Origin: Catenulispora pinisilvae
GTDB taxonomy: Bacteria; Actinomycetota; Actinomycetes; Streptomycetales; Catenulisporaceae
Assembly (NCBI RefSeq): GCF_015356865.1
Contig: NZ_JAAFZA010000134.1
Span: 1 to 24,000 of the forward strand
Direction of reading: 5' to 3'
Length of the DNA stretch: 24,000 nt
Program-made: the position numbers and the translations under genes
Part shown: positions 5,056 through 20,562 of the stretch, in pieces
Layout of the letters: every line of letters begins with the position of its first letter
How positions within the stretch are numbered: position 1 is the first letter of the stretch
The notes under the pieces: model-generated
Seen by the model: only the letters and a program-made list of their open reading frames with translations
Databases searched by the model: none
Told to the model about the DNA's origin: nothing

Positions 5056-7242
5056 ATGAATAACAATCGCAGACTCCGAATACCCGCGGCCGCCCTCGGC
5101 ACCGTGCTGCTCGCCGCCACCGGTGTGGCGACCGTGGCCGCCGGCTCGGCCGGCGCCGTCACGGCGAACCCGACAAGCACGACGGGCACGGGCACGACAA
5201 GCGCTGCCGGCGCGTCGAGCTGGCAGGAGAACCTGGCCCAGGCCCACTCCGACGACGTGAACACCGCCTGGACCGGCCACGCGCTGGCCGTCCGGGACGT
5301 CCAAGCACACACGGCCGCCGCCCAGGACTCCCGTGGCTACGCCATGGACACATTCCCGGCGCACACTCTGTCCGCCGCGACGAACCAGCTCACTGTCGTC
5401 TCCAACGTGCAGCAGCCGTCCGGCTCCCGCGTCGAGGTCGACGTCCGGGGCCAGGCCGCGAACGGCACCTGGACTGAGTGGACCCCGGCCGGGGCGAACG
5501 GCGCCACCCGCTTGTCCGCGGCGGCGACGCTGGTGCAGACCCGCGTGACGATGTGGAGCAGCGCCTCGGGGACGGCGCCGAGCGTCACCAGCATCGCGGT
5601 GACCGCGGACGCGAACGTCACCGCGGCCGCGGCCGCCCCGAACGCCACCGCCACGCCACTGTCCTACAAGGTGTTCGCCACCGACGAGGGCTTGGTCGGC
5701 AGCACCACCGCCAACGGCCATGTGATCCAGCAGAACGACCACTTCGTGGCGCTGCCGTCCACGACCGCGCTGTCCCCGAAGGGGTCCGGCGAGTACTCGG
5801 TCCAGGTCTGCGGCCCGGTCCGGTGTGAGACCGCGCCGGTGTGGGACGTCGGTCCGTGGAACATCCACGACAACTACTGGGACAACCCGCGCGCCGAGTT
5901 CACCAGCCTCCCGCAGGGCGAGCCGGAGGCCCAGGCCGCTTACGACAACGGCTACAACGGCGACAAGTCAGACATCGGGTCCACGGTCGTGAACCCGGCC
6001 GGTATCGACCTGGCCGATGGCACCTTCTCCAACATCGGCCTGACCGACAACGGTGATGTCACCGTCACCTACCTGTGGACCAGCGGCGGAGGAACGCCGC
6101 CTCCGCCGCCGGCGCAGACCCCGGCGGAGACCGCCGCGAGTTCGACGCTGGTGCACGACGGCTACACGAGCGTGTACTCGGTGGACTCCAGCAACAGCCA
6201 CTTGCAGGAGACGTACCTGCCGAAGATGGGCGGCTCCTGGGCCACCCAGGACCTCTCCACCAACTACGGCACCCCGGCAGTGCTCGCGGGCACGCAGCCG
6301 GTGGCGATCTACCACGACGGATACACGAGCATTTACACCGTCGACGCCAGCAACCACCACTTGCAGGAGACGTACCTGCCCAAGCTCGGCGGGCCCTGGG
6401 CCACCCAGGACCTGACGAACAACTACGGCGCTCCGGCGACGTCGGTGACGCCCACGACGGTTCTGCACCAGGACTGGCTGAGCGTGTACACGATCGACCA
6501 GAGCAACGGCCACCTTCAGGAGACCTACCTGCCCAAGCTCGGCGGGCCCTGGTACTCCAAGGACCTCGCCGCCGCTGAGGGCGCCCCGGCCTCGGCCAAC
6601 ATCAAGCCGGTCTCGATCATGCACGGCGGCTACACCAGCGTCTACACCGTCGACGCCGGAACCGGCCACGTCCGCGAAAGCTACATCCCCGCACTCGGCC
6701 AGAACTGGGCCACCCAGGACCTCTCCGCCAAGTACAGCACCCCGGCGACCACCGTCGCCCCGACCGTCGCGGTGCACCAGGGCTGGACCAGCGTCTACAC
6801 CATCAACTCGAACGGCCACTTGCAGGAGACGTACCTGTCGGCCATCGGTCAGCCCTGGTACTCCAAGGATCTGGTGCCCCAGTCCGGGACGCCGGCCGCG
6901 AGCCTCAACACCGCTCCGGTCGCCCTGTACCACAACGGATACACGAGCGTTTACACTGTCGACGCTGGCACCGGCCACTTGGAGGAGAGCTACATTTCGC
7001 AGCTCGGCGCCTCGTGGACCAGCCAGGACCTGTCGGCCAAGTACGGCACGCCGAACCCGGCCGGCAACATCGACGCCCTCGTTCACCCCGACGCCAACCA
7101 GGCGATGACCTACGCGAGCGTTTACTCATTGGATGCCGGGAGCAACCAATTGCAGGAGACCTACCTGTCGGCCATCGGAAGCCCGTGGCGTACCCAGAGC
7201 CTGTCCATCGGCTACGGCACGCCCGCCGGCTCCGTGATCTGA
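5056..7242 (+). CDS. Secreted RlpA-like double-psi beta-barrel (DPBB) domain protein fused to the same 7-repeat beta-propeller domain
   Basis: An in-frame ATG at 5056 follows AAGAGG/AAGGA. The signal peptide is MNNNRRLRIPAAALGTVLLAATGVATVAAGSAGA. An unassigned domain of about 190 aa comes next. It is followed by VFATDEGLVGSTTANGHVIQQNDHFVALPS...YSVQVCGPVRCETAPVWDVGPWN...GIDLADGTFSNIGLTDNGDVTVTYLW, which matches the RlpA/3D/barwin-like DPBB pattern (G-x-T-A-x-G...A-L-P...V-x-D-x-G-P...IDL). A PPPPPAQTPAET linker and 7 repeats complete it. The track ORF start at 4768 lies inside the previous gene and is not used. Confidence 0.85.
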   Translation: MNNNRRLRIPAAALGTVLLAATGVATVAAGSAGAVTANPTSTTGTGTTSAAGASSWQENLAQAHSDDVNTAWTGHALAVRDVQAHTAAAQDSRGYAMDTFPAHTLSAATNQLTVVSNVQQPSGSRVEVDVRGQAANGTWTEWTPAGANGATRLSAAATLVQTRVTMWSSASGTAPSVTSIAVTADANVTAAAAAPNATATPLSYKVFATDEGLVGSTTANGHVIQQNDHFVALPSTTALSPKGSGEYSVQVCGPVRCETAPVWDVGPWNIHDNYWDNPRAEFTSLPQGEPEAQAAYDNGYNGDKSDIGSTVVNPAGIDLADGTFSNIGLTDNGDVTVTYLWTSGGGTPPPPPAQTPAETAASSTLVHDGYTSVYSVDSSNSHLQETYLPKMGGSWATQDLSTNYGTPAVLAGTQPVAIYHDGYTSIYTVDASNHHLQETYLPKLGGPWATQDLTNNYGAPATSVTPTTVLHQDWLSVYTIDQSNGHLQETYLPKLGGPWYSKDLAAAEGAPASANIKPVSIMHGGYTSVYTVDAGTGHVRESYIPALGQNWATQDLSAKYSTPATTVAPTVAVHQGWTSVYTINSNGHLQETYLSAIGQPWYSKDLVPQSGTPAASLNTAPVALYHNGYTSVYTVDAGTGHLEESYISQLGASWTSQDLSAKYGTPNPAGNIDALVHPDANQAMTYASVYSLDAGSNQLQETYLSAIGSPWRTQSLSIGYGTPAGSVI
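6145..7239 (+). repeat. Seven tandem repeats of about 50-53 aa (predicted 7-bladed beta-propeller), copy B
   Basis: Same repeat consensus, unit order and length as 3899..4993, and collinear without indels. By eye there are about 37 amino-acid differences over 381 aligned positions, counting the linker. Confidence 0.85.
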
Positions 7243-7280
7243 GCAGCGCGGCCGAGATCTGAGCAGCACAGCCAAATCCC

Positions 7281-7320
7281 GGGTTCCCCCTCCGGTCCGC
7301 GCGACCGGCAGGGGGAACCC
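7281..7320 (+). terminator. Stem-loop downstream of the propeller gene pair (candidate intrinsic terminator)
   Basis: GGGTTCCCCCT-CCGGTC-cgcgc-GACCGG-c-AGGGGGAACCC has an 11-bp outer stem plus a 6-bp inner stem. It begins 39 nt after the stop at 7242 and is followed by TTCCCCCC, so there is no clean U-tract. Confidence 0.5.
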
Positions 7321-7371
7321 TTCCCCCCGACCCTGACCCCCGGGCCAGCCCTCACCTGAAGGGACAGCACT

Positions 7372-10065
7372 GTGTCCAACCCGGCTCTCGAGCCAACTCC
7401 TGCCCCAGGCTCCACCCCCGAACCGAGCGGCCCCGTCCTCGGCCGCCGCGGACTGCTGCGAAACACCAGCTTGGCGGCGCTCGCCGTGGGCGGGGCGTTC
7501 GGCGGGGTCGTCGACGGCACGGCCCAGGCTATGGCAGCGACTCAGCCTGCTGCGACGGCGATGGCGGCGGCGAAGGCGGCGGCTGCGACGGCGGCTGCGC
7601 CCCGCACCGCACAGGCCCGCGCGGACATCTCGTTCACCCCGCTGCGGCCGCCGGCCACGCCGCTGGCCGTGCGCTCGCCGTATCTGAGTACCTGGCTGGC
7701 CGGGGACTCCCTGGTCGGGACCTGGTCGTCGTTCTGGAACGGCCACACAACGGCGCTGTGCGGGATCGCGCGTATCGACGGCACGGCCTACCTGTTCGCC
7801 GGCGCGCCGGCGTCCAGCGTGGTGCCGAACAGCATGACCCAGACCTCGGTGCAGCTGACGGCGACCCGCTCGATCTTCACCTTCACCGCCGCCGGGGTGA
7901 CGCTGACCGTGACCTTCTTCTCCCCGGTCGAGCCGACGGACTTGCAGCGGCAGAGCGTGCCGTTGTCCTACGTGACGGTGCGGGCAGCGAGCGCCGACGG
8001 CGGTTCGCACACCGTCGATGTGCACCTGGACGTGTCGGCGGAGTGGGCGCACGGCGATGTGACGCAGCAGGTCACCTGGGCCCAGCAGCAGACCGGCGCG
8101 GGCAGCGTCATCATGGGCTTCACGCCGAACACGCCGACGGTGTTCGGCGAGCACGGCGACCAGGCCTCGTGGGGCACCTCGGTGCTGGCGTCGTCGGCCG
8201 CCGGCGGCCTGACATGGCAGCTGGGCCAGGACATCGTGGTGCGCGGCGCCTCGGTGTCGCAGGGGACGCTGCCGGACACCGTGGACCAGAACCAGCCGCG
8301 GGCCATCAACGACAACTGGCCGGTGGCCGGGTTGAACCGGAATCTGGGGACGGTGACGTCGGCCAGTCCCTCGGCGGTGTTCGTGGCGGCGGTCGGGCAC
8401 GTCCGCACGCCGGCGCTCACGTATCTGGGTGCTGATCTGCCGCCGTGGTGGTCGACGTACTGGGGCAGCTGGGAGGCGATGGTCGACTGGTTCCTGGCCG
8501 ACTATCCCGCGGCGCTGGCCTCGGCCCAGTCGCTGGAAGCGCAGATCGAGTCCACCGCTTCGGCGGCCGTGGGCGGCGGGTCGGTCGGTGCCGACTACGC
8601 GGCGTTGTGCGCGCTGGCCGCGCGGCAGGTCATCGGCGGGACCGAGTTGGTCAGCAGGAACGGGTCGCCGTGGGCGTTCCTGAAGGAGATCTCCTCCGAC
8701 GGCAACGTCTCCACGGTCGACGTGATCTACCCGGCGTTCCCCGGGCTGCTGTTCCTGGATCCGTCCTACCTACAGCTTCTGCTGGAGCCGATCCTGGACT
8801 ACAGCGAGAGCGGGCAATGGCCGAAAACGTTTGCGGTGCACGACCTGGGCAGCAGCTATCCGAACGCCGCCGGGCACAACGACGGCAACGAGGAGGACAT
8901 GCCGGTCGAGGAATCGGCCAACATGCTGATCATGATCGCGGCGCTGCTGCAACGCATACCGGCGGCCTCGGCGACGGCGTTCGCGCAGCAGCACTACACG
9001 ATCCTGAAGCAGTGGGCTGATTATCTGGTCCTCAACGCGCTGGACCCGGCGAACCAGAACCAGACCGACGATTTCACCGGCCCGATCGCGCACTCGGCGA
9101 ACCTGGCGCTCAAGGGCCAGGTGGCGATCGGGGCGATGAGCGTCATCTCCTCGATCGCCGGGTCGGCGTACGCGGCGGATCAGGCCTCGTACTACTCCAC
9201 CGCGCGCAGCTACATCAGCCAGTGGGTGACCAAGGGCGAGGACCCGTCGGGGACGTACCTGGACCTGGCCTACGGCTCGCCGACCACCTGGTCGCTGAAG
9301 TACAACGGGTTCCCGGACAAGCTGCTCGGGCTGAACCTGGTGCCGACCGGGATCAAGACTCAGGAGGCCGGCTGGTACCAGTCCAACGCCGGCACCTACG
9401 GCGTGATCCTGGACCCGCGGCACAACTACACCAAGGCCGACTGGGAGATCTTCACCGCGGCGTTCCTGTCCGACCAGCCGGTCCGCGACACCCTGATCCA
9501 GGGGGTGTACGGGTTCGCGAACAGCACCGGCAACCGGGTGCCGTTCTCCGACTGGTACGACGTCACCTCGGCCGCGCAGCAGGGCTTCCAGAACCGGCCG
9601 GTGGTCGGCGCGATGTTCGCCCCGGCGCTGACCGTCACCGCCGACCGCACCCGGTGGTACAAGATCCAGAACCAGAACTCCGGCAAGGTGCTGGCGGTCT
9701 CGGGGATGTCACTGGCCGACGTCACGAACGTGACGCAGTGGACTGACAACGGGACCCCCGACCATCTGTGGGCCGTCGTGCCGAACCCGGACGGGACGGT
9801 GCGGATCGTGAACCGGAACAGCGGCAAGGTGCTCGCCGTGCACAACCAGGACACCTCGGCGGGGGCGTTCGTGCAGCAGTACATGGACAACGGGACGCCG
9901 GACCACCTGTGGCGGATCTCCGACGCCGGGAACGGCTGGTCGAAGATCTTCAATGTGCACAGCGGGTTGCTGATGGCGGTCAGCGGGGCCTCCACCGCCG
10001 ACGGCGCGCAGGTGACGCAGTGGAATGACAATGGGACCACGGATCACTTGTGGCGGTTGGTGTAG
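7372..10065 (+). CDS. Tat-signal secreted glutaminase GtaA-like (DUF5127/DUF4965/DUF1793 family, putative glycoside hydrolase) with C-terminal ricin-type beta-trefoil lectin domain
   Basis: The GTG start follows GAAGGGA. GRRGLLRNTSLAALAVGGA is a twin-arginine signal. FTPLRPPATPLAVRSPYLSTWL...ARIDGTAYLF matches the N-terminal signature of the fungal/bacterial glutaminase-A family. The C-terminal 140 aa or so carry three (Q/D)xW-type trefoil repeats: VTQWTDNGTPDHLW, VQQYMDNGTPDHLW and VTQWNDNGTTDHLW. Confidence 0.85.
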   Translation: MSNPALEPTPAPGSTPEPSGPVLGRRGLLRNTSLAALAVGGAFGGVVDGTAQAMAATQPAATAMAAAKAAAATAAAPRTAQARADISFTPLRPPATPLAVRSPYLSTWLAGDSLVGTWSSFWNGHTTALCGIARIDGTAYLFAGAPASSVVPNSMTQTSVQLTATRSIFTFTAAGVTLTVTFFSPVEPTDLQRQSVPLSYVTVRAASADGGSHTVDVHLDVSAEWAHGDVTQQVTWAQQQTGAGSVIMGFTPNTPTVFGEHGDQASWGTSVLASSAAGGLTWQLGQDIVVRGASVSQGTLPDTVDQNQPRAINDNWPVAGLNRNLGTVTSASPSAVFVAAVGHVRTPALTYLGADLPPWWSTYWGSWEAMVDWFLADYPAALASAQSLEAQIESTASAAVGGGSVGADYAALCALAARQVIGGTELVSRNGSPWAFLKEISSDGNVSTVDVIYPAFPGLLFLDPSYLQLLLEPILDYSESGQWPKTFAVHDLGSSYPNAAGHNDGNEEDMPVEESANMLIMIAALLQRIPAASATAFAQQHYTILKQWADYLVLNALDPANQNQTDDFTGPIAHSANLALKGQVAIGAMSVISSIAGSAYAADQASYYSTARSYISQWVTKGEDPSGTYLDLAYGSPTTWSLKYNGFPDKLLGLNLVPTGIKTQEAGWYQSNAGTYGVILDPRHNYTKADWEIFTAAFLSDQPVRDTLIQGVYGFANSTGNRVPFSDWYDVTSAAQQGFQNRPVVGAMFAPALTVTADRTRWYKIQNQNSGKVLAVSGMSLADVTNVTQWTDNGTPDHLWAVVPNPDGTVRIVNRNSGKVLAVHNQDTSAGAFVQQYMDNGTPDHLWRISDAGNGWSKIFNVHSGLLMAVSGASTADGAQVTQWNDNGTTDHLWRLV

Positions 10066-16144: not shown

Positions 16145-16166
16145 GGTTACTCCTCACTGCGGGACA

Positions 16167-16210
16167 GATGCGCAGGCTACCTGTCAATAATAGCAGGGAG
16201 CCTGCGCATC
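16167..16210 (-). promoter_or_regulatory. 44-bp near-perfect palindrome in the MFS gene upstream region (candidate operator overlapping promoter elements)
   Basis: GATGCGCAGGCT-N20-AGCCTGCGCATC has perfect 12-bp arms, and the inner CCTG.../...CAGG pairs extend the symmetry. The AT-rich centre reads TATTATTGACA on the minus strand, which contains -10-like and -35-like hexamers. The site lies 23-66 nt upstream of the MFS start. Confidence 0.45.
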
Positions 16211-16314
16211 TTGGAATCTCGCAGGTGGGGCATCAGGTTTGGGGGTCCAGGTCTGGAGCTTCAGGTCTGGAACTTCAGGTCGCTGCCGGGCGGCATGCGG
16301 GGTTGCTGGGATTG

Positions 16315-16845
16315 CTGGAGTTTGCGGGCGGGGTGCGGTTGGCGTGTGGGTTGAAAGGCGATTTTTACGGCCTTCGGTCATGGTTGTGCCGGTTCGGGGT
16401 TCGGGTCGGCGAGCATGTTCGTCGGCCGCCGGTTTGCGCGTTCACAACCCCGCCGCACCTCAGGCCTCTTCAACTCCGGCAAGTCAGAGCACGAGCACAG
16501 GCAAGATCAACGGCACAGTCAAGGTCAAGGTCAAAAGCCCTGGTGAAGAGCCGGCGCCTCCGGCGGGGGCTCTCGGCTCCCTCGGGGAACTGGCGCGGTT
16601 CCATAGGGTGGTCCGGCTAGTCTCAGCGGCGGCGGTTTGTGGGGTGGTTGCGGTTCGTTCCCCTCGCTCGCGTCGTCAGCCCCAAGGGGTACAGCGCCGA
16701 ACCCCGGGAGTAAAGTCCGCGCGCTGCGGTCAGGCGTGCAGGTGACGGCCGCGTACAGCGCGAACTTGACTCCCGAGAACCGGCACTGTAGGCAAAGCCC
16801 TGCCGACGCGACCGAGGGGAACGAACCGAAAACCGACCGGAGAAG
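16315..16845 (+). repeat. Left arm (531 bp) of a large imperfect inverted repeat; non-coding module
   Basis: It aligns by eye over its whole length to the reverse complement of 17175..17730. The first 90 nt (CTGGAGTTTGCGGGCGGGGTGCGGTTGG...) show 2 mismatches. The arm contains several local hairpins and ends in the 189-nt hairpin at 16646-16834. Confidence 0.85.
16646..16834. other. 189-nt extended imperfect hairpin (foldback core or structured-RNA candidate), copy L
   Basis: The perfect 16-bp basal stem is CGGTTCGTTCCCCTCG (16651-16666) paired with CGAGGGGAACGAACCG (16813-16828). Further pairing follows: TCGCGTCG/CGACGCGA, TACAGCGCCG/CGGCACTGTA and GGGAGT.../...ACTCCC, closing around an apical region at about 16720-16760. 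Confidence 0.7.
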
Positions 16846-17174
16846 TACAAAACCGGTGGTGCGGTACCGGCGACTCGGCGAGTTCGGCCGCCGGTCCAGC
16901 GCGTGGCAGCGCGGCAGTCCCAGAGTGCGCATTCTAGGCTGGCGGGTGCGGTGCGGGTGCGGGCTCGCCTGGCCGCCAAGGCCGATGCTGGCGGATAGCA
17001 AGGTGCGCGCTGGGGGATGTCGGCAGTCGGCGGCAGACTGCTGCGAGCGCAGCCGGTCCGTTGCCGCATACCGCACCCGGGCACGCCGTCGACCAACTGA
17101 CCACCGGCCCGCAGCCAACGCCCTTACCGGCAGCGACACCGCCCAACCCGCGTCTACGGACCCTGTGATTGCTA

Positions 17175-17730
17175 TTCTTCCGGTCGGTTTTCGGTTCGTT
17201 CCCCTCGGTCGCGTCGGCAGGGCTTTGCCTACAGCGCCGGTGGCCGGGAGTCAAGTTCGCGCTATACAAACCGCAGCTTGCAGGCCCGACCGCAAGCGCG
17301 CGGACTTTACTCCCGGACACCGGCGCTGTACCCCTTGGGGCTGACGACGCGACCGAGGGGAACGAACCGCAACCACCTCACAAACCGCCAGCGCAGGGCC
17401 CTGACCCGGCCACCCTATGGAACCGCGCCAGTTCCCCGAGGGAGCCAAGAGCCCCCGCCGGAGGCGCCGGGCTCTTCATCAGGGCTCTTGACCTTGACTG
17501 TGCCGTTGATCTTGTTTGTGATCCGGCTCTTGATCTTGCTGTTGATCTGCCCTTGCTCCAACTTGCCGGAGTCAAAGAGGCCTGAGGTGCGGCGGGGTCT
17601 TGAACGCGCAAACCGGCAGCCGACGAACACACCCGCCGACCCGAACCCCGAACCGGCACAACCATGACCGAAGGCCGTAAAAATCGCCTTTCAACCCACA
17701 CACCAACCGCACCCGGCCCGCAAACTCCAG
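17175..17730 (-). repeat. Right arm (556 bp) of the large imperfect inverted repeat; non-coding module
   Basis: Its reverse complement matches 16315..16845, by eye roughly 85-90% identical. It carries extra sequence (net length difference 25 nt) in the low-GC TTGATCTTG tract plus small indels. It ends at CTCCAG (17725-17730). Confidence 0.85.
17186..17374. other. 189-nt extended imperfect hairpin, copy R
   Basis: It has the same 16-bp basal stem as copy L: CGGTTCGTTCCCCTCG (17192-17207) paired with CGAGGGGAACGAACCG (17354-17369). The interior pairs better than in copy L, for example CCGGTGTCCGGGAGT/ACTCCCGGCCACCGG. Confidence 0.7.
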
Positions 17731-17818
17731 TAAGGGAACCGCGATCACCGCCAGTCGGGCATCACGCCTCCGGCACACGGCCTGAGACCGTGACCGTGAC
17801 CCTGACCCTGACCCCGAC

Positions 17819-18304
17819 CTAGACCTCGGCCTCGGCCTCGGCCTCAACCCCGACCTCAACCTCGGCCACCTGCGGAACAGCGCAAGCACCCTCCGGCGTG
17901 CAGCAGCCATCGGGCATCACAGTATGCCCTTCGAGCTGGGCGTCGGCCAGAACGGTATACACCTCCCACCGCTCCGCCCCCGGTCCGGTTACCCAAACCT
18001 TGTCCTGCACCGCGTAGCAGCAGGTTGTGGCCTCCTCCACCGCGGTCGGCAAGCCCTCGTCGGCCAGGCGCGAAGTGGCCGCGGTGACCTGGGCGGTGTG
18101 CTCGACCTCCACCCCGAGGTGGTCCAGTCGGGTCGGCGCGTTGGCGGTGCCCTCGATCAGCACCAGTTTGAGTGGCGGTTCTGCGATCGCGAAGTTGGCG
18201 TAGCCGGGGCGGCGCTTGGCTGGCTCGGTGTCGAAGAGCTTGCTGTAGAAGGCGATCGAGGCCTCCAGGTCGGTGACGCGTAGGGCGAGTTGGACGCGGG
18301 ACAT
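17819..18304 (-). CDS. arsI: ArsI/CadI-family VOC (glyoxalase-fold) protein; candidate C-As lyase or metal-stress protein
   Basis: AGGAGG precedes the ATG at 18304. MSRVQLALRVTDLEASIAFYSKLF...KPGYANFAIAEPPLKLVLIE...LDHLGVEV...TTCCYAVQDKVWVTGPGAERWEVYTVL matches the ArsI/CadI family, including the vicinal Cys pair in TCCYAxQDKVWV. It is adjacent to and divergent from arsR. The symbol is tentative because ArsI and CadI cannot be told apart by eye. Confidence 0.75.
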   Translation of the reverse strand: MSRVQLALRVTDLEASIAFYSKLFDTEPAKRRPGYANFAIAEPPLKLVLIEGTANAPTRLDHLGVEVEHTAQVTAATSRLADEGLPTAVEEATTCCYAVQDKVWVTGPGAERWEVYTVLADAQLEGHTVMPDGCCTPEGACAVPQVAEVEVGVEAEAEAEV

Positions 18305-18322
18305 GGTGGGCCTCCTGGCTGG

Positions 18323-18387
18323 ATAGACGAGTGTCTATGCAGTCAAGGTTGCCTCTTGTATCGATGGCTGTCAACATAGACGTATGT
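18323..18387. promoter_or_regulatory. arsI-arsR divergent control region with two ATAGAC-containing inverted repeats (candidate ArsR operators)
   Basis: The sites are ATAGAC-gagt-GTCTAT (18323-18338) and ACATA-gacg-TATGT (18374-18387, overlapping the arsR ATG). The intergenic region is 79 bp and its GC content is below the window average. Confidence 0.4.
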
Positions 18388-18776
18388 CGAAGAAGGAGTT
18401 GCCGGTTCTCCAGCCTGCGCAGAGCGTTCCGGGCCTGCCCGGCGTGCTGTGCTGCACTCCGCTGGCCCGCGAACCGCTCGGCGAGGCGGATGCGACGGAC
18501 CTGGCGAAGGTCTTCAAGGCGCTGGCCGATCCGGTACGGCTCCGCCTGTTCTCGCTGATCGCCTCGTTCGAGGGCGGCCAGGCCTGCGTCTGCGATCTGA
18601 CCGGGGAGTTCGACGTGTCGCAGCCGACCATCTCGCACCATCTCAAGGTGCTGCGGGACGCCGGGCTCGTGGGCTCCGAGCGGCGCGGGACGTGGGTCTA
18701 TTACTGGGTGTTGCCGCGGACGTTGGGGCGGTTGTCCGGGTTGCTGGCACCGGCCGAGACCGGGGCTTTGGTGTGA
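18384..18776 (+). CDS. arsR: ArsR/SmtB family metalloregulator
   Basis: DLAKVFKALADPVRLRLFSLIASFEGGQACVCDLTGEFDVSQPTISHHLKVLRDAGLV contains the CVC metalloid-binding motif and the ArsR wHTH. The context is arsenic-related. Confidence 0.85.
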   Translation: MSKKELPVLQPAQSVPGLPGVLCCTPLAREPLGEADATDLAKVFKALADPVRLRLFSLIASFEGGQACVCDLTGEFDVSQPTISHHLKVLRDAGLVGSERRGTWVYYWVLPRTLGRLSGLLAPAETGALV

Positions 18777-18789
18777 GGAGGCCGGGGAT

Positions 18790-19214
18790 TTGGCGTGGGA
18801 GGGTGAGCGCCGCATGACCGGCAGGCCCAGCGTCCTGTTCGTCTGCGTCCACAACGCCGGGCGCTCGCAGATGGCTGCCGGCTTCCTCACGCACCTCGCG
18901 GGCGACCGCGTCGCGGTGCGCTCGGCGGGGTCGGCGCCGGCGGGCAGTGTGAATCCGGCGGTCGTGGCGGCGATGGCCGAGGTCGGGATCGATCTGCGGG
19001 CGGAGACGCCGAAGGTGCTGACCGATGAGGCGGCGCTCGCCTCCGACGTCATCGTGACCATGGGCTGCGGTGACGCGTGCCCGGTCTACCCGGGCAAGCG
19101 GTATCTGGACTGGGAGCTGCCGGGCAGGGCGTTGCGGCGGTGCGGCCGATTCGCGATGACATCGAGCGGCGGGTGCGGGGGCTCATCAGCGAACTGCTCG
19201 GGCCGGTCGGATAG
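18790..19214 (+). pseudogene. arsC: LMW-PTP-type arsenate reductase, frameshifted near codon 110 (pseudogene or sequencing error)
   Basis: The N-terminal two thirds are intact: RPSVLFVCVHNAGRSQMAAGF...VIVTMGCGDACPVYPGKRYLDWEL. After 19122 the track frame turns to Arg/Ser/Gly junk (PGRALRRCGRFAMTSSGG...). The frame entered at 19125 reads QGVAAVRPIRDDIERRVRGLISELLGPVG-stop (TAG 19212-19214), which is the expected ArsC C-terminus. The start is the TTG at 18790 (GAGGAGG 8 nt upstream) or the ATG at 18814. Confidence 0.65.
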
Positions 19215-19309
19215 AGATAGCTCGGGCCGGTCGGATAGCTCGGGGCGGCGGACACGGCTCGGCCCGCAAGCGATAGCGCTTTAGTCCCCGCCACCGCCTT
19301 CGGCCTGGC

Positions 19310-19461: not shown

Positions 19462-20562
<1,101 letters not shown>

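Follow-up and report, generated by a model that had tools for sequence, protein, structure and literature searches.

What occupies the gap between an MFS transporter gene and a small group of ars genes in Catenulispora pinisilvae? The window analysed here, a stretch of 24,000 nt (RefSeq assembly GCF_015356865.1, contig NZ_JAAFZA010000134.1, positions 1 to 24,000), has a 1.67-kb interval at 16145-17818 that is filled for the most part by a long imperfect palindrome. An initial annotation, made by a model from the sequence and a list of its open reading frames (ORFs), offered three readings: two oppositely oriented genes for a structured RNA, a non-autonomous pair or composite resembling a foldback element or a MITE (miniature inverted-repeat transposable element), or an invertible segment or barrier between the transporter and the ars genes. 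We conclude, with good confidence, that the segment from about 16300 to 17733 represents a single copy of a foldback-type repeat, non-coding and non-autonomous, that has spread through Catenulispora genomes. We take the element to be, most likely, selfish mobile DNA rather than an RNA gene or a switch, and the rival readings weighed below explain less.

The palindrome and its insertion site

The left arm (16312-16844, plus strand, 533 nt from its outer to its inner end) is the reverse complement of the right arm (17175-17733, minus strand, 559 nt), as established by repeat search and gapped local alignment. Identity holds at 488 of 562 alignment columns, that is 92% of aligned bases, or 87% with the 32 gap columns counted, and the repeat search of the window gave collinear inverted blocks of 186, 100, 89 and 66 nt with 92-95% complementarity. 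A 530-nt inverted repeat at 92% identity far exceeds a chance origin. The inverted homology that had been read by eye was thus reproduced, with small corrections: the outermost 100 nt hold 3 mismatches (2 in 90 nt had been counted) and the arm lengths differ by 26 nt, not 25. Indels between the arms fall mostly within a stretch of 6/12-nt tandem repeats. The arms make up 1092 of the approximately 1434 nt of the element and enclose a central spacer of 330 nt (16845-17174), compared below with the spacers of other copies, which is non-palindromic, in keeping with the first impression that it is not obviously symmetric.

The limits of the element (16300-17733, arm-spacer-arm) come from an orthologous locus that lacks it. 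In C. pinistramenti contig JAAFYZ010000215 (fetched locus L084) the order msiK-arsC-arsR-arsI, 217 nt of intergenic DNA, then MFS-marR-usp is that of the window without the element. Homology to this contig ends at about 16296-16299 on the MFS side and restarts at 17734 (GGAACCGCGATCACC...), flush with the arm tips, which read TTGCTGGAG... at the left junction and ...CTCCAGTAA at the right. The left boundary is uncertain within 16297-16312; the right one lies at 17733/17734 and is also found in a sister strain of C. pinisilvae (L085), and full-length homologs of the unit occur elsewhere. This alignment shows the window element to be an insertion, evidently gained by the C. pinisilvae lineage once it had separated from C. 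pinistramenti.

On the plus strand the flanks read ...GCGGGG before the element and GGGAACC... after it, in the sister strain as well, which leaves GGGG immediately to the left (16296-16299, read from the sequence) and its partner GGG immediately to the right (17734-17736, from the L084 alignment and the sister strain) as a direct repeat of 3-4 nt. It is weakly suggestive of a target-site duplication, with no corroboration from other copies, whose outer boundaries differ. At the left tip itself there is a 9-nt duplication, GGGATTGCT (16299-16318), that the sister strain does not have.

Two contigs of the sister strain terminate inside the element with identical junctions. The orthologous element there (L001 1-864, L085 6487-7057) has only about 91-92% identity to the window copy, against 98.4-99.3% for the flanks. 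At several of the left-arm positions where it differs, it agrees with the right arm of the window; gene conversion between arms may lie behind this, or else chimeric assembly of short reads at contig ends.

The native DNA within the 1.67-kb gap consists of 16145 to about 16299, with the MFS operator/promoter and a 14-nt minisatellite, and of the arsI 3′ flank at 17734-17818. The gap is gene-free as first described, by codon-position G+C content (GC3) and by Pfam, but it is not all element. The MFS protein of the window has 100% identity to one of C. pinisilvae. In Catenulispora sp. EB89, C. rubra and GAS73 the MFS gene adjoins msiK, with neither ars genes nor element between them. The element was also considered as the carrier of the arsI-arsR-arsC islet and rejected in that role: C. 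pinistramenti has the islet in the same place without the element, so the islet predates the element's arrival and was not carried by it.

From the outside inward, the left arm begins with an outer domain (16312-16480, mirrored at 17565-17733), whose outermost approximately 50 nt are G/T-rich and variable and whose core further in, CCGGTTCGGGGTTCGG ... GTTCACAACCCCGCC ... CCTCAGGCCTCTTCAACTCC, is conserved and can fold on itself. A minisatellite of 6/12-nt units resembling AGCAAGATCAAG follows at 16486-16536; this is where most arm-to-arm indels lie, and its mirror at 17487-17548 is longer by 24 nt. Next come two short conserved hairpins, GAGCCGGCGCC-tcc-GGCGGGGGCTC at 16548-16572 and CCCTCGGGGAAC-tggcgcg-GTTCCATAGGG at 16579-16608 (mirror 17413-17442), and then a long branched hairpin of about 185 nt, at 16648-16831 in the left arm (by repeat search, folding and alignment) and at 17189-17372 on the minus strand in the right arm (by repeat search and pairing analysis). 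Nowhere is the family more conserved than in the 3′ half of the long hairpin, or more variable than at the tip of this hairpin (16718-16758 in the left arm). A side hairpin within it (16791-16799) reads GGC-AAA-GCC in the window and GGC-GAA-GCC in the family, and we presume the family form to be akin to very stable DNA mini-hairpins.

Dispersal, coding capacity and folding

One genome per species was scanned with a 22-mer from the base of the inner hairpin. Among the matches listed are at least 75 stretches, one in C. rubra and all others in C. pinistramenti NL8, the latter including at least 50 arms. In a BLAST comparison with the fetched loci, full-length homologs of the arm-spacer-arm unit were found at 76-80% identity, their ends falling close to window positions 16303-16314 and 17722-17730; examples are L006 6432-7823, L011 5468-6783, L013 2647-4108, L020 15-1427, L039 1649-3085, L057 5457-6860 and L059 4088-5477. 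Further copies lie in the C. pinisilvae genome (L078, its second), in EB89 (L077) and on metagenome contigs L082 and L083; L077, L078 and L082 were traced through translations of spurious ORFs in the element, and L083 is the single occurrence of the invariant 22-mer in the JGI metagenome collection. A plasmid, phage or viral origin was rejected, as blastn gave no matches in PLSDB (plasmids) or INPHARED (phages) and IMG/VR viral contigs gave only 17-mer motif matches without extended similarity.

All copies are intergenic, and gene ends face them slightly more often than gene starts (25 against 17). No neighbouring gene recurs among 258 high-GC3 ORFs of the fetched loci, whose neighbours are mutually unrelated; no transposase lies in or beside any copy there, and no RAYT (Y1 HUH) gene was found in these approximately 80 loci. 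The family is dispersed, in many copies, at unrelated intergenic sites. It is, as far as these searches of genomes and metagenomes reach, restricted to the genus and present in every Catenulispora species looked at. Many contigs of the C. pinistramenti short-read assembly are element fragments of 300-900 nt, or end inside the element. Two loci, L047 and L058, resemble solo arms whose partner is missing from the next 7 kb; the L047 arm (75-591) joins short hairpins of the C. pinisilvae/EB89 type to a long hairpin of the C. pinistramenti type and appears a clear mosaic between subfamilies.

This dispersal bears on the idea that the palindrome is a programmed invertible switch, or a regulatory cruciform, specific to this locus and serving the MFS transporter or the ars genes. 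Inverted repeats of 530 nt do permit inversion, the element stands between arsI and the MFS operator, and both spacer orientations occur among C. pinistramenti copies: relative to the asymmetric outer ends, the spacer runs one way in L039 and L059 and the opposite way in L057 and L006. The same structure is nevertheless found at dozens of unrelated loci and is missing from the orthologous locus in a close relative. No recombinase is nearby (the neighbours are MFS, MarR, Usp, ArsI, ArsR and ArsC), the arms are 530 nt long rather than short recombination sites, and the spacer has no promoter-like site and is the least conserved part. We regard such a switch as extremely improbable. What survives of the invertible-segment reading is the occurrence of both spacer orientations, seen in those four copies; it does not describe what the element is, and flipping of the spacer by arm-to-arm recombination probably takes place as a by-product.

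A hidden or disrupted protein gene was rejected. Across the element there is no GC3 signal, unlike in the flanking genes; the three longest ORFs inside it have no Pfam matches; and indels between copies, not multiples of 3 and including 1-nt changes that interrupt every reading frame, appear in the 56-arm alignment described below. ORFs running through the repeat have been annotated as hypothetical proteins (L077 6001-7197; P0001-P0011), for example the 398-aa ORF ABH920_006806 in EB89, and are almost certainly spurious.

Each arm might instead be a gene for a structured RNA of about 0.5 kb, with two convergent or divergent copies here, the family then being one of multi-copy RNA genes or an RNA-mediated (retro-)element. 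The arm does fold better than its shuffles (z = -3.4 on the outer-to-inner strand, z = -6.6 on the opposite strand), its stems are conserved and its loops variable, and the outer-to-inner strand is G/T-rich with many G-U pairs. Among 15 diverse copies of the long hairpin 96% of cells are paired, and double changes are found at 4 pairs (8 cells), as against 1.5 pairs (2.3 cells) in shuffles, with none of 500 shuffles reaching the observed value; in L083, for instance, GTGTC/GCCAC has become CAGCC/GGCTG. By this comparison of copies the long hairpin appears to be maintained, equally well as RNA or as DNA, and through selection or through hairpin-templated repair.

Such repair of a DNA palindrome accounts just as well for the compensated pairs, which number 4 of 118 and leave an RNAalifold covariation term of -1.18 kcal/mol. 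A known RNA family was rejected, in agreement with the initial annotation: Rfam 15 gave nothing in the element beyond noise at gathering thresholds or at E<=10 (best below 20 bits, E about 0.5 or higher). No sigma-70-like promoter site was found in the element, spacer included; the three terminator-like sites are no more than shuffles yield; no reverse transcriptase is nearby; and the spacer and outer ends vary freely. With covariation almost absent and family-invariant sites mutated in the window copy, two RNA genes at this locus find little support, and we consider RNA genes very unlikely.

Constraint within the arms

Constraint was measured in an alignment of 56 arms from four species, 50 of them from C. 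pinistramenti. Among those 50, 299 of 483 well-aligned columns are invariant, 42 vary as singletons only and 89 have a minor allele in at least five arms. The longest invariant run spans 40 columns (permutation mean 11.5, maximum 33, over 2000 permutations), and the 26-mer CGACCGAGGGGAACGAACCGAAAACC is unchanged in all 56 arms and four species. Nucleotide diversity (pi) is 0.000-0.002 over 60 nt of the 3′ half of the long hairpin (window-equivalent 16759-16818) against 0.22-0.24 in the adjacent tip, where the 56 arms have 54 different sequences. Flipping of the tip as a source of this diversity was rejected, since for not one of 1431 loop pairs does the reverse complement give the better alignment. 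The 12-nt minisatellite has 0 to 8 units depending on the copy, the outermost approximately 50 nt are among the most variable parts of the arm, and the spacers, 160-450 nt long and mutually only 66-70% identical, are least conserved of all.

Transitions and transversions both occur among the common variants, which are often 3- or 4-allelic. Linkage is essentially absent, with r2 falling from 0.16 at up to 10 nt to 0.02 beyond 30 nt, and all four gametes occur in 59% of site pairs at up to 10 nt and in 86-92% beyond that. Arms of the same element share alleles no more often (0.632) than random arms (0.636); concerted evolution of the two arms of an element is not seen in C. pinistramenti.

These patterns would suit a repeat recruited by the host, a giant analogue of REP/BIME/ERIC sequences or of REPINs, whose copies are selected as protein-binding site, cruciform, terminator or insulator and dispersed by a domesticated single-copy RAYT-like enzyme or by gene conversion. 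Interior blocks without any variation among the 50 C. pinistramenti arms stand next to columns that are saturated and multi-allelic with almost no private mutations. The lack of linkage disequilibrium beyond about 10-30 nt, with same-element arms resembling random ones, is expected of old copies under purifying selection or of constant short-patch conversion. The intergenic position of all copies, their slight excess at 3′ ends and their confinement to one genus, in every species looked at, point the same way.

Not every copy is maintained, however. Identity between the two arms of an element ranges from 98% (EB89) down to 78-85% (L078), so copies of different ages exist, and L078 and the window copy have diverged at family-invariant positions. 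The arms of the window copy differ at 25 of 348 family-invariant columns and at 21 of 129 family-variable ones, from which it follows that this copy is no longer held to the constraints of the family. A close relative with the same flanking genes has nothing at the orthologous site, so the locus functions in the absence of the element; no RAYT-like or recurring gene adjoins any copy in the fetched loci; and at 1.4 kb the unit exceeds every known REP or REPIN in size by a factor of 10-40. Recruitment by the host is, on balance, unlikely.

Outer ends, mobility and the surrounding DNA

Beyond the arm tips, C. pinistramenti copies extend outward in two ways. One extension is short, GGGGCTGWTCGGGGTTCGGATCTTCTTG; the other is long (74-206 nt) and consists of an additional minisatellite followed by YTA and, directly after it, GTGCCGTRTCAGGCAACGTTTGCC, a 24-nt terminal repeat of IS630 type. 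This repeat with its TA lies outside 20 of the 38 arm ends that have enough flank. The same 24-mer bounds a decayed, TA-flanked IS630-type element with a remnant of a DDE_3 transposase (L032 5704-7179). It is shared with the outer extensions in the fetched loci, not with arm tips or with the window copy, for which IS630-type ends were rejected. The L032 element abuts the spacer side of a solo arm (7183-7783) and looks as if it had inserted into a copy of the repeat. In one class of outer extension (L019, L039, L057 and L061; for example L039 3085-3232) the first approximately 25 nt of an arm (AGATTGCTGGCTGGATGCGGTAG) are followed by a complete short-ended copy, as though one copy had landed in another's tip or a partial tandem duplication had occurred.

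If the element is selfish mobile DNA, its copies would be made by an enzyme supplied in trans, and the requirement in cis would be for most of the arm interior and not for the tips; the interior would probably serve either as single-stranded DNA in folded form or as a series of sites to which protein binds. Such a need would keep interior blocks identical across copies and species and leave tips, loops and centre free to vary. The window copy has decayed at the constrained sites, so the constraint would act on propagation of the family and not on a service that each copy renders to the host. The IS630-family transposase is a candidate mover of those versions that carry its ends. The window copy, which has no IS630-type ends, is flanked by GGG(G) and differs at family-invariant positions, is for these reasons most likely an immobile, slowly decaying relic. 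Side effects of its presence would be that arsI is displaced by 1.4 kb from the MFS operator/promoter, that a read-through transcript folds as a very long hairpin and that recombination between the arms inverts the spacer.

Several observations weigh against a selfish foldback repeat. An IS630-type end stands on both sides in only one of the seven full-length C. pinistramenti copies (L013), the ends being mostly one-sided, and one-sided ends cannot support cut-and-paste transposition. In the window no such end was found anywhere at up to 5 mismatches, with GGGG/GGGA rather than TA at the flanks, and no transposase or other enzyme in the fetched loci is linked to the window form of the element. 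Classical DDE-transposon ends show the reverse of what is seen here, where the outer termini belong to the least conserved parts of the arm. In DNA this rich in G a flanking repeat of 3-4 nt is weak evidence, and for about 71 nt of intergenic sequence in C. pinistramenti the window has no counterpart. The unlinked variants, with same-element arms no closer than random ones, could mean selection on every copy, that is, a host function. Finally, the family sequences come mostly from short-read assemblies that break inside the element, which makes long-range phasing of variants unreliable and leaves short-range haplotypes safe.

Among known systems the eukaryotic Foldback/Galileo elements come nearest in architecture, and among bacterial concepts the nearest are MITEs and REPINs; the element departs from size- and end-related defining features of each. 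Like Foldback/Galileo elements it consists mostly of long inverted arms with variable tandem sub-repeats around a short, variable, non-coding centre, and those elements too are mostly non-autonomous and promote inversions. The Catenulispora element differs in its bacterial host, in having no P/MULE-type transposase in or beside its copies, in a flanking repeat of at most 4 nt against a target duplication of 7-9 bp, and in conserving the arm interior, not the tip. The likeness is architectural, with no homology found or expected.

Bacterial non-autonomous repeats are usually under 0.3-0.5 kb. With bacterial MITEs, including those derived from IS630/Tc1-mariner elements, the family shares a non-coding, multi-copy, intergenic, hairpin-foldable form bounded by inverted repeats, and the 20 of 38 C. 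pinistramenti arm ends that lie inside the 24-nt IS630-family repeat and TA add to this. It differs in its 1.43 kb and 530-nt arms, against less than about 0.5 kb (roughly 50-500 bp) and terminal repeats of 10-40 nt. Other differences from IS630-derived MITEs are the absence of an IS630-type end or TA at the window copy, the one-sidedness of most copies, and cross-species conservation of the interior, something for which a DDE transposase has no need. L013 2478-4174, where the palindrome is a passenger between two IS630-type ends without a transposase, recalls mobile insertion cassettes such as MIC231; its passenger is, however, a non-coding palindrome, not genes, and the arrangement is that of one full-length copy in seven and not of the window. 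The initial annotation was therefore right to suspect a foldback or MITE-like element, given a non-autonomous, multi-copy unit with an empty orthologous site, and wrong to suppose a pair or composite, as this is a single element. It had also allowed for a routine scar of a multi-copy element with a cognate transposase; the element is multi-copy, and no cognate transposase was found for the window form in the fetched loci.

REPINs are doublets of repetitive extragenic palindromic (REP) sequences that form hairpins and are mobilised by RAYTs, domesticated Y1 transposases resembling those of IS200/IS605. Like them, the Catenulispora family consists of a conserved hairpin unit doubled in inverted orientation, with a variable spacer in between; it occurs in tens to hundreds of intergenic copies, is conserved as a population and apparently passes by vertical inheritance within a genus. 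The scale is different (a unit of about 530 nt and a doublet of 1.4 kb, against about 20-40 nt and about 100 nt), and no RAYT gene adjoins its copies in the approximately 80 fetched loci. A bolder proposal, which we hold to be doubtful, is a bacterial foldback transposon of a new kind that moves by means of the folded interior of its approximately 530-nt arms, where the branched 185-nt hairpin, GNA-type mini-hairpins and further stem-loops would probably be recognised as single-stranded DNA by a trans-acting enzyme (HUH/RAYT-like or other). It would be a giant REPIN-like system co-evolving with the genus and not a passenger of IS630, and the near-absence of linkage would be a mark of short-patch gene conversion acting intensely among the dozens of copies.

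The DNA around the element has features of its own. About 20 nt upstream of the MFS start codon lies a 46-nt near-perfect palindrome, AGATGCGCAGGCTACCTG...CAGGGAGCCTGCGCATCT (16166-16211), kept in all four relatives whether the element is present or not; it is probably an operator for the MarR-family regulator encoded just downstream of the MFS gene. A 14-nt minisatellite, TCAGGTCTGGAGCT, with 3.5 copies at 16233-16281, is an expansion in native DNA adjoining the element, with more copies in the sister strain and none in C. pinistramenti. This palindrome and minisatellite were rejected as an outer end of the element, both lying in DNA shared with element-free orthologs. On the other side, repeats of 6/12/18 nt (GACCCT, CCTCGG) at 17786-17867 run across the arsI stop codon and the C-terminal tail (...AEVEVGVEAEAEAEV*), with an 18-nt indel between window and sister strain.

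The ars islet itself (17819-19284) encodes an ArsI/CadI-type glyoxalase on the minus strand and, on the plus strand, ArsR and an LMWP ArsC, between msiK and the MFS gene. It is present in C. pinisilvae and C. pinistramenti and missing from the same spot in EB89 and C. rubra (L079, L080, L081 and L084 compared), and GAS73 has a gene for an F420H2-dependent quinone reductase there instead. From these gene orders the msiK-MFS intergenic region appears to be a hot spot for gene gain. The only Rfam match in the window is the msiK RNA motif (RF01747, 19399-19454, 43 bits, E = 1.4e-7), which lies immediately upstream of the ABC ATPase gene msiK (19462-20562), the position expected of such a leader.

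For this locus, the gap is accounted for by an insertion that parts arsI from the MFS operator, without a hidden gene. Literature on Catenulispora repeats and bacterial foldback elements yielded no description of the family or of bacterial foldback elements of such a kind; the family has apparently not been described so far. Its 1.4-kb size, structured arms of half a kilobase, at least 50 arms per genome and interior conservation do not fit the standard picture of a MITE and its transposase, and this misfit points to an unusual mechanism of mobilisation or to a recruited function. The family also explains why short-read Catenulispora assemblies fragment into hundreds of contigs at element sites, and long inverted and dispersed repeats of this kind can drive inversions and rearrangements beside resistance and transport genes.

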